From assembly GCF_013167455.1 (NCBI RefSeq), contig NZ_CP038328.1: a stretch of DNA of 64,000 nucleotides; one strand, 5' to 3'. The notes beneath the pieces were generated by a model. It was not told the DNA's origin. It saw nothing but the letters and a program-made list of their open reading frames with translations, and did not search any database. Below, one piece after another: positions 53-6,082 of the stretch. The DNA is from Escherichia coli O157:H7. Lineage in GTDB: Bacteria; Pseudomonadota; Gammaproteobacteria; Enterobacterales; Enterobacteriaceae. Every line of letters begins with the position of its first letter. Within the stretch, counting starts at the first letter, position 1. The position numbers and the translations under genes are program-made.

Positions 53-948
53 TATTTCCCCCGTTTGGCGCGTGGATGCGCCGCATCGTACACCGAGGCA
101 AGGTGTTGAAAATCAAGATGAGTATAGATTTGCGTGGTGGAGAGGTTGGCATGACCCAGCAGCTCCTGCACACCACGAAGATCGCCGCTCGACTCCAGCA
201 TATGCGTAGCGAACGAGTGACGTAATTTATGCGGGTGAACGTGATTATTCAGCCCTTGTTTTATGCCCCATTCGGCAAAGCGTTTCTGCACATTACGCGC
301 GGAGATACGCTTGCCCAGTTTCGACAGAAAAAGCGCGTCGTCTTCGCTACCAAACAGGTCGCGCAAATCAAGCCAGTGCTCAATCCATGACAAAGCGTTA
401 CGACCAATCGGCAGGCGGCGCTCTTTGCTGCCTTTCCCCATCACCCACACTTCGCCGGACTCCAGGTCGAGGTGTTTGATGTCCAGCCCCACCAGCTCGG
501 AAAGACGCAGGCCCGCGCCGTACATCACTTCCAGCATTGCACGGTCGCGCACAGCGAGGGGATCGTTGATATCAATATCCAACAGGCGATTTATATCATC
601 GACGTCGATATTTTTCGGCAGATGACGTGGCGTTTTCGGTGCCGAAACACCTTTCGCCGGGTTAGCTTTGAGTTCGTTCTGGCTGACCAGCCAGTCAAAA
701 AAGCTACGTAGCGCAGAGAGGCGTAATGCGAGGCTTGCCGCGCCCAGCCCTTTACGGCGACTGCGTACAGCAAAATTGCGCACCATCGCTGCATCGCATT
801 GCTGCCAGTTTTGCAGGCCGTTTTCGCTGGCAAAATTGATGATCGCCTCAAGCTGTCGCTGGTAGTTAAGCAGAGTTATCGGACTAAGCTGCCGCTCCAC
901 GCTCAGATAACGTAGGTAGCGTTCTACATCGGTGTGTAAATCGGTCAT
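52..948 (-). CDS. xerC: Tyrosine site-specific recombinase XerC (chromosome dimer resolution)
   Basis: 298-aa ORF; C-terminal tyrosine-recombinase signature ([10 protein letters not shown]...[14 protein letters not shown]); operon context. Confidence 0.95.
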
Positions 949-1652
949 ACGCGTTCAATCCAACGCTCCAGAAGCTCCGGCAACATCAGCGCAATTTCAT
1001 GAAGTAACTGCGTTCCCTGCCCTTGTTGATAGTGACTGGCATCGCGGCTGGTGAACAGCACCACGCCTAAATCAGCATCGCTTCCCAGCATCGACATCGC
1101 CACCGATCCCACCGCTTTCGCTTCCGGTAGTACCACCAGCAGCTCCGGTCCGTTAAGCGGCCCCAGATAATGCTGCTCCTGCCCCAGACGCTGAATACGC
1201 AGCGGTTCGAAAGACTGACGGCTTAATGCCAGATGAGTGTGGTTCGACGGCGCACCTAAGCGCCAGCGATCCGGAAACAGGCGCAGACTCGCACCTGCCA
1301 GGCCGAGATCACGCGCCCAGCGGTGAAAGCGCATCAGCATATCATCAAGACTGCTGGCGGCGGTGAGACTGCGCTGCAGGTAGAGTAAGCGATAAAACAG
1401 GCCTTCGTTGGCGATAGCCTGTTCCATCAACAGCGCCATGTTCTCTTCCAGAACATGAATATGATTACGTGCGCGGGCCATGTGCCACTCGACCAACGAA
1501 ACGGTACCGCGTACCGGATGCGGCACACGTATCGCTTCTACTGCGCGCGCATTGCGGATAAAAAACTCAGGATTTTTAATCAGATAATCGACAACCACCC
1601 GGTCATCAAGCTCCGTGAGTGTTTCCTGCAGTTCTTCCCCTGGTTGCTTCAT
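945..1652 (-). CDS. yigA: DUF484-family protein YigA
   Basis: 235-aa ORF, 4-nt overlap with xerC start and dapF stop; conserved position between dapF and xerC. Confidence 0.85.
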
Positions 1653-2473
1653 AGATGAATAAATCCGTCGTAGACATGTACCGCCGGGCCAGTCATATAT
1701 AACGGGTGACCCGGACCTTTCCAGGCGATATCAAGACGACCGCCTGGGAGTTCCACGCGTACTTCTTCGGCCAGCAAACCTTGCTGAATCCCTACTGCAA
1801 CCGCCGCACATGCGCCGCTGCCGCAGGCCTGGGTTTCTCCTGCCCCACGCTCATAAACGCGTAAACGAATATGCTCGCGCTTAACCACTTGCATAAAACC
1901 GATATTGGCGCGCTCCGGAAAACGCTCGTGGCTTTCCAGAACAGGCCCCAGTGTTTCTACCGCCGCAGTATCGACATCATCGACCTGAATCACGCAATGT
2001 GGATTTCCCATCGACACCACGCCGCATAAGATTGTCTGCTCGGCGGCGCGCATAATATAGGTCTTTTCCGCTTTGTTAGCGCGAAACGGCACGGCAGAAG
2101 GTTCGAAGTTGGGTTCGCCCATATTTACGCGGACCAGATCATCATCGGTGACGGTAAGAACCATCCGCCCGTTGGCGGTGCTGACGCGGATATCGCGCTT
2201 ATTGGTCAGCCCTTTCAGACGCACAAAACGGGCAAAGCAGCGTGCGCCGTTGCCGCACTGCGCCACTTCACTGCCATCAGCATTGAAAATGCGATAGTGA
2301 AAATCCAGTTCAGGATCATACGGCGGCTCAACCACCAGCAGTTGGTCAAACCCTACCCCCAGGTGCCGATCAGCTAGGCGACGAATCAGCTCCGGTGAAA
2401 AAAAGACATTCTGCGTTACCGCGTCGACGACCATAAAATCGTTGCCAAGGCCATGCATTTTCGAGAACTGCAT
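1649..2473 (-). CDS. dapF: Diaminopimelate epimerase
   Basis: ORF translation [19 protein letters not shown]... with paired active-site Cys regions ([14 protein letters not shown]); track ORF has one extra upstream Met, second ATG chosen. Confidence 0.92.
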
Positions 2474-2509
2474 CATTTACTCCAATCACGCGGGTACAGA
2501 AACTGACTT

Positions 2510-2713
2510 TTAGTAATTCACCTGGGATGGACCATCGCCAGTGGCGCGATCGTTTTTATCCGGCACCGTGGATTGCGTTTGCGTCTCTACCGGTTTGGTC
2601 GGCGGCGGTGCATTTTTATCTGCAGGCGGGAAATAGAGCGGACCTTTCAGACCGCAGCCCGTCAGGCTGAAGAGAGTAAGTAATACAGTGAGTGCCTTAA
2701 ACACGTTTTTCAT
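2510..2713 (-). CDS. yifL: Small lipoprotein YifL
   Basis: 67-aa ORF with signal peptide and lipobox (LTGC); immediately upstream of dapF. Confidence 0.8.
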   Translation of the reverse strand: MKNVFKALTVLLTLFSLTGCGLKGPLYFPPADKNAPPPTKPVETQTQSTVPDKNDRATGDGPSQVNY

Positions 2714-3175
2714 TATGGATTGCCTGTAAAGTTCATCGCTTTCTGCTTTCTATCATCGCAGGAGAAGGCGTAAAAGCAAGCGTTTAGCGACTCTTTATGA
2801 AGTCTGAAAAGTGAGGAAATGCTGCGAGTATAACGCTTACTCGTGAGGATTTATGTTCTGCTGGCAGTTTCGTGATCAACACCTCACGCCAGGATGGCTT
2901 TATGCACTATCGCAATGTGGTTTGTTTGTTGGCTTTTTTAGTTCCGTCAGCGTGAGGATGCTCGCTCGGTAAACCTGATCATAATGTTTACCAGAAACAG
3001 GGAAAGGCGTGGTGTAACTGCGCCCTAATGAAGAGACAAATCTTTCGCTACACAGAGACATCATTATTCCGGTGACGGATGAATCATGCCGTAACGCAGC
3101 CGCAGAGGTGCAAACTTTGAAGCCCTGACCCCATGCCGCTATACTGCCGCCATCACTTAAAAACAGGATACAACA

Positions 3176-3496
3176 ATGAACGACAGTGAATTTCATCGCC
3201 TGGCTGATCAACTGTGGCTGACCATTGAAGAGCGTCTGGACGACTGGGATGGCGACAGCGATATCGACTGCGAAATCAACGGCGGCGTGCTGACCATTAC
3301 CTTTGAGAATGGCAGCAAAATCATTATCAACCGCCAGGAACCGCTGCACCAGGTATGGCTGGCAACCAAACAAGGCGGCTACCATTTTGATCTGAAAGGC
3401 GATGAGTGGATTTGCGATCGCAGCGGCGAAACCTTCCGGGATTTGCTGGAACAGGCGGCGACGCAGCAGGCGGGTGAAACAGTCAGTTTCCGCTAA
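3176..3496 (+). CDS. cyaY: Frataxin homolog CyaY (iron-sulfur cluster assembly)
   Basis: 106-aa [36 protein letters not shown]...; acidic N-terminal ridge typical of frataxin. Confidence 0.92.
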
Positions 3497-3535
3497 GATT
3501 GCATGCCGGATAAGCCTCGCTTTCCGGCACGTTCA

Positions 3536-6082
3536 TCACGAAAAATACTGCTGTAATAGCGGCGTATCGTGATCCTGATTGGCAGGCGGCATGTTACCGA
3601 TAGATTTTGTGCGGAACGGAATCACCTGTTCACGACCATCAACCTTCACAATCTGATAGAACTGCGGCAGGTTGAAGTTGATGAAGCTTGAGCCGTAGGT
3701 AAAACGGTCATGCGATGACGAGTAGAAGCGACTGACGTCACGTACCAGCTCCTCTTTGCTGCCTTCGCAGTGGTGATACACCTCAACCCGATTGCTTTCG
3801 TCGAGAATGTAGATATTAAAGCCATTCTCATCTTGCGTTTCTTCGAAAAAGAACTGGATGATCCCTTCGCTGGCAAAGCCGTCCACCACCGCCGGTAATT
3901 TGACGTGATTGGTTTCAACCTGCACTGACAGGCCGTGCAGTTTGTTATGCGAAATAGCGCCATAAAACTCGATGGCGTTCTCCAGTTTCTGTACCGATAC
4001 ATTCAGGCGTTCGAAGAACAAGCCCCAGGTTTGACCAGAAACGCGCAGCGCCTTGAAACGCCCGGTTTCCTGGCGGGTGCTGGAAAGACGCAATTCAATA
4101 CACTCAGAAACCAGTTGCTGCACGCGAGTACGAATTAAGCCGCGCAGATGCTGGCTATAACAGAAGACTTCCACGCTATCTGGCGGTGCGGCGTCCTGAT
4201 GCATTTTGCCGAGAATAGTTTTCAGGGCTTCGATCATCGATTGCTCGCCGTTGAAGTGCAGCGTACGCACTTCATTCCACGAGTTGCGATACAGCAGGTC
4301 AACGCTACCTACCAGGCAATTTTGATTCTCGCCAAAGCTGAAGACATCCAGCTTACGGAAATCAAAATGCACCACCTGATTGCGGAACGCAGCTGTCGGG
4401 TCATATTCCAGGTTAACGATAATCGCCAGATGGCGGATCTCACACGGGCTGTAGAGCGCCTTCGGTGTCGGTGCAGGTAAGCGCAACGGGAAATGGTGCG
4501 ACACGTCGGCGACCATCTCCTGCAACTTAGGCAAATCGACAATGCCGTTACCTTTAATATACAAGCGGGTGCGCGAGGTCAGCAGGCCGTTAAACCATGC
4601 CCACGCCACCAGTTTATTCAGGTAACGGTTATATTCCAGCGGCTGATGGCTGATGATCGACTCAATATTTGGCGCGCGGTTATACAGATACCAACCTGAA
4701 CGGTTAGCCCGGCCCGGCGGCACATAAATAAAGGTCAGATTCGGTTCCGAGAGATCGGGTGAAATCTGCGGGTTTACCAGCGTCACTTTACCTGGTAATG
4801 CTTCAAACGCGGCATACAGCTTACGCGTCAGCACGCCGATATCCTGCGGACTGGCGGAGACGCTAAGGTTATTGCGACGCGCAAAGCGGATCAGATTACG
4901 GTAGCTCTGCATCATCGCGTCGAGCAACTCGTTGTGCGCCTCACGCACCTGATCAATCTTCCAGTTAGCGCGGTTATCGAGCATTGCCAGACGAGCTTCG
5001 TCCCACCCCCACTCGCTCACTAACTGGCTCAACACTGCGCGACGCCAGCCTACGCAGGCGCGTTCACGGCTGAGCTTTTCGCACACTTTTAAATAGAAGC
5101 AGCGACGTACTAAATCCAGACGGGTGAAATCTTCAATCGCCGTCAGGTATTCAGTAACACGCTCCAGCATCATGCAGTAAGGATCGAGGCCAAACGATAC
5201 AATCTCGCCGTCGTGCAAACGCTGTTTGATATCTTTCGCCAGCAGGCGTGGGTTCGGGTATTCCCAGGAATAGGCTTCCAGCAGCAGTGTCTTCAGCACC
5301 GCTTTGTATGGAGAATCGATACTCTTGTAGAGTTGCCAAAGGCTGGCACCGAAGTATTCTTCAGCGGAAAGCGAGCTTAAGCCGCCGAGATCCAGCCATT
5401 CATTTGGCGTCAGCACGCCTTGTGCGTAGAGCGTCATTACGTAGTCATCGTAATGCTCTTCTTCGTCGCACGGCACCATATTCCACAGAATACGCTTACC
5501 GGCGAGACGCACGGCGGTACGATAAAATTCATCAAGCAGCAGTATATGCTGGGTGGAGCCACAATCTTCGCCCCCCAGACTGCCACTCTCGTTGTGGCGA
5601 AAACGGTTTTCATCAATCAGGAAGAAGCTAACTTCCACACCCAGCGAGGCGGCCCAGCTTTCCAGCAGGCTGCATTTACGTTGTAGCAACTGGCGCTCTT
5701 CGCTATCGAGCCAGGATTGATGACAGACCCAGATATCCAGGTCAGAGGAACAACTTTGCCCTACGGACGAGGTGCTGCCCATGGTGTATACACCAGTAAT
5801 TGGAAGCTCACCTTTCGGCGGGTCCTGTACTGACATTCCACGATACAGTTCAAGCTCGTTCAGGTAGTGGCGTTGAGTTTCATCAGGCGTGTAAAGGCAA
5901 ATGCCTTTGGGAACGTTACCATCAAGGTAACCCGGCATTAGCGGATGGTGATAGTGCAACAATGTCGGCAGTAGACTGTAGACCTGTTGGAATGCAGGCC
6001 CCATAGCAGCAAGCGCGCGATCCACACGCAATTGATTTATGGCATCCAGTCTCTGTTTCAGAGTCTCAATATAGAGGTACAA
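3536..6082 (-). CDS. cyaA: Adenylate cyclase (class I), TTG start
   Basis: 848-aa [21 protein letters not shown]...; start codon at 6080-6082 is TTG on the minus strand (caa on +). Confidence 0.95.

Follow-up and report, generated by a model that had tools for sequence, protein, structure and literature searches.

The 462-bp spacer between lptM (formerly yifL) and cyaY in Escherichia coli O157:H7 very probably holds in its middle an ordinary pseudogene scar of a DKNYY island, flanked by normal lptM and cyaY promoters, with no hidden gene for an RNA or a small protein. The spacer occupies positions 2714-3175 of the window, the stretch of 64,000 nucleotides that was analyzed. A preliminary description of this DNA had found no feature in the spacer that could be assigned. 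This is no longer the case, as 350 of the 462 bp are a recognizable pseudogene scar that carries the PGAP annotation "DKNYY family protein." The DKNYY pseudogene as such was already known, having been flagged by RefSeq. In the history that we propose, the two ends (2714-2789 and 3140-3175) would correspond to the usual control region from which lptM-dapF and cyaY are divergently transcribed. Between its two promoters a variable island would have been inserted that carries two genes, here called A and B, often preceded by a DUF3304 (Tli1-like) gene. A single in-frame deletion of 2,549 bp would then have left codons 1 to 52 of gene A joined to the final 25 of gene B, and in the K-12/O157 allele a frameshift and two nonsense mutations would subsequently have killed this 75-codon fusion ORF. 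On this view, gene loss rather than an overlooked regulator explains why lptM and cyaY lie so far apart in K-12 and O157, which settles a small annotation puzzle. The coordinates of all features are given in Table 1.

Table 1. Features of the lptM-cyaY region (window positions, unless a locus is named)
Feature	Position	Strand	Remarks
lptM (formerly yifL)	2510-2713	-	
Core block, lptM side	2714-2789	-	Shared with the basal spacer of ~138 bp; lptM 5' UTR, ribosome-binding region, and putative promoter
Putative lptM promoter	-35, 2774-2779; extended -10, 2752-2760	-	TTGCTT, 16-nt spacer, TGcGATGAT; read by eye
Island left end, upstream leader of gene A	2790-2901	+	Collinear with M-17; contains the hairpin, SD-like GAGGA (2845-2849), ATG (2853), and gene A SD AGGA (2890-2893)
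Hairpin CGAGTATAACGCTTACTCG	2825-2843	+	6-bp stem CGAGTA/TACTCG, 7-nt loop TAACGCT; within the gene A leader
39-codon ORF starting ATGTTCTGCTGG	2853-2972	+	ATG at 2853; out of frame with gene A
PGAP pseudogene "DKNYY family protein"	2872-3050	+	Frameshifted, internal stop, missing C terminus; start is an upstream in-frame GTG (2872)
yzcX (K-12 b3808)	2900-3385	-	161 codons; from the K-12 annotation and the ORF list
Gene A 5' fragment, dead	2902-3051	+	Codons 1 to 52; signal peptide and start of the mature protein
T-run TTTTTT	2934-2939	+	TTT TTA, coding for Phe-Leu in the dead signal peptide, MHYRNVVCLLAFLVPSA followed by a stop
Lesion 1	2953-2955	+	TGG to TGA
Lesion 2	about 2997-3001	+	1-nt deletion in a G-run
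Lesion 3	3015-3017	+	TAC to TAA
Gene B 3' fragment	3052-3128	+	Last 25 codons and stop TGA (3126-3128)
Predicted sigma-70 cyaY promoter	3117-3145	+	-35 TTGAAG (3117-3122), 17-nt spacer, -10 TATACT (3140-3145)
Core block, cyaY side	3140-3175	+	Shared with the basal spacer; cyaY -10 element and 5' UTR
cyaY	3176-3496	+	
DUF3304 gene	L006 6350-6904; L007 6342-6896; L008 5193-5747		

Spacer length was surveyed at 78 cyaY loci of Enterobacteriaceae, one genome per species, by measuring the lptM-cyaY distance. At 49 of the 78 loci the distance was 134 to 139 bp, which bears out the earlier remark that the 462-bp spacer is long for a divergent promoter region. Genera with this basal spacer of about 138 bp include Salmonella, Citrobacter, Klebsiella, Raoultella, Enterobacter, Kosakonia, and Kluyvera. 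The spacer of NZ_AP018488 is 100% identical to that of the window. Only 2714-2789 and 3140-3175 correspond to the basal spacer of other Enterobacteriaceae; the island-derived portion, 2790-3139 (350 bp), is absent from basal spacers.

The basal spacers were aligned as 50 distinct sequences, in which TTGCC.GT, TTTCTATCATCGCAGGAGAAG, and AAAAGCAAG are conserved in at least 95%. The most conserved motifs are retained in the window, with TTGCCTGT, TTTCTATCATCGCAGGAGAAG, and AAAAGCAAG on the lptM side and TATACTGCCGCCATCAC on the cyaY side, and positions 3140-3175 are 100% identical in all of the E. coli, E. whittamii, and Escherichia sp. strain E1V33 sequences compared. Relative to the basal region of Salmonella, Citrobacter, Klebsiella, Enterobacter, and others, with which the two ends align, the window lacks the central ~25 bp, including a conserved CTGCAAC upstream of the cyaY -10 element, and has the 350-bp island remnant in its place. 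In Klebsiella michiganensis and K. spallanzanii (L048 and L056, 1-7000) synteny is broken: lptM and dapF are absent from the 7 kb upstream of cyaY, and the region contains other large ORFs of up to 558 codons.

E. coli strain M-17 carries two intact genes between lptM and cyaY, both in the orientation of cyaY. Gene A encodes ~489 to 502 amino acids and gene B ~438 to 441, and the products are paralogous, signal-peptide-bearing proteins of the DKNYY family. In the M-17/UTI89-type island they are WP_001350350.1 (489 amino acids) and WP_001014284.1 (438 amino acids), and their counterparts in strain RM7190 are WP_000580518.1 and WP_001014280.1. The spacer in the window is orthologous to this pair at both ends and lies at the same position in the same orientation, but it misses 2,549 bp and has three disabling lesions in the remainder. 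In BLASTN comparisons, window 2400-3051 matched M-17 829-1487 at 94% and window 3052-3600 matched M-17 4037-4585 at 92.5%; exactly 2,549 bp are missing between the two matching halves, which places the junction at 3051/3052. RM7190, GPEC673, and 1297KP have the same flanks. In TBLASTN searches of the window, residues 1 to 52 of intact gene A gave E values of 1e-14 to 7e-20 in matches that are broken by stops and change frame, and residues 417 to 441 of gene B gave an E value of 1e-13, with 24 of 25 residues identical to the C terminus of RM7190 gene B. The deletion is in frame and joins the two genes via a hybrid codon. Its junction is identical in all aligned scar alleles, which comprise six further E. 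coli alleles of both allele classes, E1V33, and E. whittamii. Reading of the junction, as opposed to a formal test, revealed no breakpoint microhomology beyond 1 to 2 nt and no obvious flanking repeat. A mobile-element origin of the spacer was rejected; the spacer is single copy per genome here, and apparent multiple match places are split matches in island-bearing strains.

Lesions in the remnant were mapped against the intact 75-codon allele of E1V33. All three are also present in K-12, and the first two are present in E. whittamii. The gene A fragment of the K-12/O157 type is just 81 to 83% identical to any intact gene A seen, and no intact gene A with a 5' allele of this type was found among the fetched loci or by protein search. 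Pfam DKNYY (PF13644) scores of the intact orthologues are marginal, at 26.5 bits for gene A and 24.9 bits for gene B with a gathering cutoff of 25, and an NCBIfam search gave no family match. The PF13644 match starts at gene A residue 41 and covers gene B residues 110 to 244, so that the surviving fragments lie almost wholly outside it; DKNYY membership would apply to the window fragment by orthology only. Comparison with the reference annotation, which the preliminary description had proposed, agrees with this origin: RefSeq/PGAP has the DKNYY pseudogene on the same sequence, at 2872-3050 (ECpv15279_RS29755 in O157:H7 PV15-279 and OLR78_RS20110 in DH10B). However, that feature covers the gene A fragment only and is without the gene B tail at 3052-3128, the in-frame junction, and the two-gene origin.

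Among 5,426 complete E. coli genomes, the contiguous scar occurs in 3,836 (71%), while the interior of genes A and B is kept in 1,584 (29%). The decayed fragment of the K-12/O157 type is found in 2,492 genomes (46%), leaving about 1,345 scars in the other allele class. At this site, DKNYY genes or fragments of them are also present in E. albertii, Pseudocitrobacter, Citrobacter sp. strain FP75, Phytobacter, Atlantibacter, Kosakonia, and Superficieibacter. The lptM-cyaY locus is thus a variable hotspot of long standing at which genes have been lost repeatedly.

In the fusion ORF that the deletion produced, a signal peptide with SAWGC at its end precedes about 30 gene A residues, and 25 gene B residues follow. 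This ORF is intact, at 75 to 77 codons, in a minority of Escherichia (S1IND, JCH767, E1V33, and the database proteins P0024 to P0029), and was located at L089 789-1022, L091 789-1019, and L011 6726-6953, homologous to window 2902-3128. Gene callers give fusion proteins of 75 to 87 amino acids (P0024 to P0029), one of them named "putative lipoprotein." The two scar allele classes share one junction and differ over the fusion ORF with a dS of ~0.45 and a dN/dS of ~0.21. One could conclude that the deletion made a new mini-gene for a 75- to 87-residue protein with a signal peptide, possibly a lipoprotein, which was or still is under purifying selection in some lineages and has since died in O157 and K-12, although we consider this distinctly unlikely. 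The low dN/dS was more likely inherited from the intact parents via recombination on both sides of the junction than produced by long-term selection on the fusion. We favor recombination because all four combinations of left and right alleles occur (E1V33, P0025, S1IND, and P0027). As neither the fetched loci nor the protein search yielded an intact gene A with a K-12/O157-type 5' end, the fusion mini-ORF may nevertheless have passed through a phase of selection.

Both promoters of the spacer are predictions with inferred positions. A consensus scan of 2400-3600 made a sole promoter-like call, TTGAAG-17-TATACT upstream of cyaY, which matches 9 of 12 consensus positions and is also called in the full island; the 1 site found in the region compares with 1.2 expected by chance. 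In the 50 spacers, the genera hardly differ in the cyaY -10 element TATACT or in GCCGCCATCAC downstream of it. The predicted -35 element TTGAAG sits inside the last codons of the gene B tail; in E. coli, therefore, the tail of a dead gene would supply the cyaY -35 element and replace the CTGCAAC block. This element lies in the last 23 bp of the island, and no other part of the scar has a likely present-day role. The rest probably lacks a function, and 2790-3116 can be treated as decaying sequence in the design of deletions, reporters, and screens for small proteins or small RNAs. The putative lptM promoter falls wholly within the most conserved block, and its hexamers were not called by the consensus scan. 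A literature search for yifL together with cyaY or promoter found nothing on promoters or transcription start sites. The preliminary description had offered a small RNA, a small protein, or only promoters as the content of the spacer; promoters hold for the two conserved end blocks alone, and neither a small RNA nor a conserved small protein is supported.

The scar might nevertheless have been co-opted as a regulatory region, a reading that is compatible with a pseudogene origin. Either the promoter and leader of gene A (2790-2901) would drive a longer cyaY transcript, or the hairpin and a mini-ORF behind it would form a cis-regulatory leader. No terminator-like site occurs from 2790 to cyaY, and the predicted cyaY -35 element is itself island derived. 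GAGGA and an ATG come after the hairpin, which folds with a local z of about -2 to -2.5 (-10.7 kcal/mol and z = -2.0 in a hand-picked 43-nt window); given this position just upstream of an SD-like sequence, it may retain a residual leader function. The mini-ORF is kept in both repeat copies of the island. Against co-option, 2790-2901 is without a promoter call in the consensus scan, in the window as well as in the intact island, and this block is the least conserved one between O157 and K-12 (94.6%). The hairpin is absent from the paralogous repeat copy (z = -0.2) and shows no covariation, as two other Escherichia species have T2841A, which disrupts a pair, and lack a compensatory change. The one perfect 6-bp hairpin in the spacer is at chance level, given that shuffled sequences yield 0.66 and the window as a whole has 1.2 per 462 bp. 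On balance, co-option is improbable, if worth keeping in mind. The preliminary description had pointed to the hairpin, the T-run, and the 39-codon ORF. All three exist, with slightly corrected coordinates (the hairpin lies 3 nt further left and the ATG is at 2853), and they are incidental by-products of the leader and signal-peptide region of the dead gene. A terminator scan called neither the hairpin nor any other terminator-like site inside the spacer, and the T6 run is 90 nt downstream of the hairpin. A K-12-like variant of the hairpin was called a terminator in RM7190, where 4 sites were found and 3.6 were expected.

A long noncoding stretch with a modest hairpin could also suggest a trans-acting small RNA, for which we see very little chance. 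An Rfam search of 2400-3600 at a permissive E value gave a best score of 19 bits (gathering threshold, 55; E = 0.94), to an unrelated viral element. Folding in 100-nt sliding windows on both strands gave z values all above -1.7, none of them significant, and no hairpin-plus-U-tract terminator was found. The sequence is absent from most Enterobacteriaceae, and its substitutions and indels have the pattern of a decaying coding sequence. The 39-codon ORF, with an SD-like GAGGA 3 nt upstream of its ATG and a hydrophobic predicted peptide, almost certainly does not encode a small protein. Codon 5 is a TAG stop in 8 of the 10 alleles compared (K-12, G5, S1IND, FDA1291, JCH767, M-17, E. whittamii, and Escherichia sp. 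strain E1V33) and CAG only in the window and EC21Z, so that conservation already refutes it. It also overlaps the start of gene A out of frame and has no Pfam or NCBIfam match. This ORF is an accident that is confined to the O157-type allele. The 4-codon mini-ORF ATG TTY TGC TGG TAG (window 2853-2867; L006 7224-7238) follows GAGGA in both repeat copies and in most scar alleles, and in O157 a change of its TAG to CAG opens the 39-codon ORF. The mini-ORF is possibly a leader peptide of gene A.

The preliminary description had also mentioned a small gene, yzcX, near this site without placing it, and such a gene does lie here. In K-12 (NC_000913.3 3993850-3994335) it is the same ORF at the same position as in the window, on the minus strand and 161 codons long. 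Its first 70 codons are antisense to codons 1 to 70 of cyaY (the first 210 nt); beyond them it lies opposite the gene B tail, then the junction, and finally the gene A fragment. Because yzcX runs across the junction, it exists in this form only as a result of the deletion. It is not a plus-strand feature of the scar but an antisense ORF that is unconserved beyond one allele class. K-12 RefSeq annotates it as "protein YzcX," and all four of the K-12/O157-type alleles examined have the full 161 codons, a length that is reached only in that type. It appears in lists of outer-membrane genes for phage-receptor screens (PMC7414163, PMC8594841), and the cyaY-yzcX overlap is listed as a "divergent excludon" (PMC12288877) because the annotated coding sequences overlap. 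A literature search on yzcX and b3808 found only gene lists and this annotation-derived overlap call. These entries would fit a real lineage-specific protein gene that arose de novo from the deletion, which we think very unlikely. Of the ORF, only 31, 31, and 118 codons are left in three further scar alleles of E. coli, 55 in two other Escherichia species, and 13 to 55 in other genera. Searches of Pfam and NCBIfam found no family match, and the sequence upstream of the ATG has no SD. Furthermore, cyaY imposes its own constraint on the first 70 codons from the opposite strand, and the remainder is antisense to a pseudogene. In our view, yzcX is most likely spurious.

The intact island, which lies outside the window, is the more interesting object: it occupies a recombination-prone hotspot and is present in ~29% of E. 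coli and patchily in other genera. In its fullest form (RM7190 and 1297KP) the gene order is DUF3304, gene A, gene B, and a DUF3304 gene lies between lptM and gene A in RM7190, 1297KP, and GPEC673. DUF3304 is a domain of Tli1 immunity proteins against T6SS Tle1 phospholipases (PMC13133936). The presence of this gene in the fullest island is the likeness to Tli1-type immunity genes; the window itself is without DUF3304 sequence in a TBLASTN search. Any tie of the DKNYY island to T6SS immunity would be one of gene neighborhood only. A DUF3304 copy of at least 90% identity is found in about 1,160 of the 5,426 E. coli genomes, and another ~500 match at 60 to 80% only.

The island of RM7190 (E. coli O91) contains a 169-bp direct repeat (L006 6080-6248 and 7163-7331) whose copies are 87% identical and correspond to the gene A leader plus the first ~30 codons. 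Window 2790-2901 is part of this repeat. Copy 1 is a truncated pseudo-start (MHYRNVVCLLACSLFLSSAWSF followed by a stop) upstream of the DUF3304 gene. The cassettes of the island seem to share a common 5' module. In GPEC673 (L007 7238-9295), one 685-amino-acid gene, presumably an A-B fusion, replaces the gene A/gene B pair, and in UTI89 (H32) an IS1 insertion lies within the island. In Escherichia sp. strain MOD1-EC7003 (L010 2446-6917), the lptM-cyaY spacer measures 5 kb and is filled by a tandem row of three or four DKNYY paralogues; the locus thus acts like an array of paralogues that can expand.

The gene B family has few members, all of them from Enterobacteriaceae, and a search with the gene B sequence found no relative in the PDB. 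An AF2 model of gene B is all-beta with a pLDDT of 79, and the intact proteins are predicted to be all-beta repeat proteins. A Foldseek search of this model against the PDB returned only beta-propeller matches with TM scores of at most 0.27, which are too low for a functional inference. A literature search on DKNYY found nothing relevant. Downstream of dapF, yigA is annotated as a pseudogene with an internal stop in the DH10B assembly NZ_CP110018 (L002 1-439) and is intact in the window (945-1652, minus strand).
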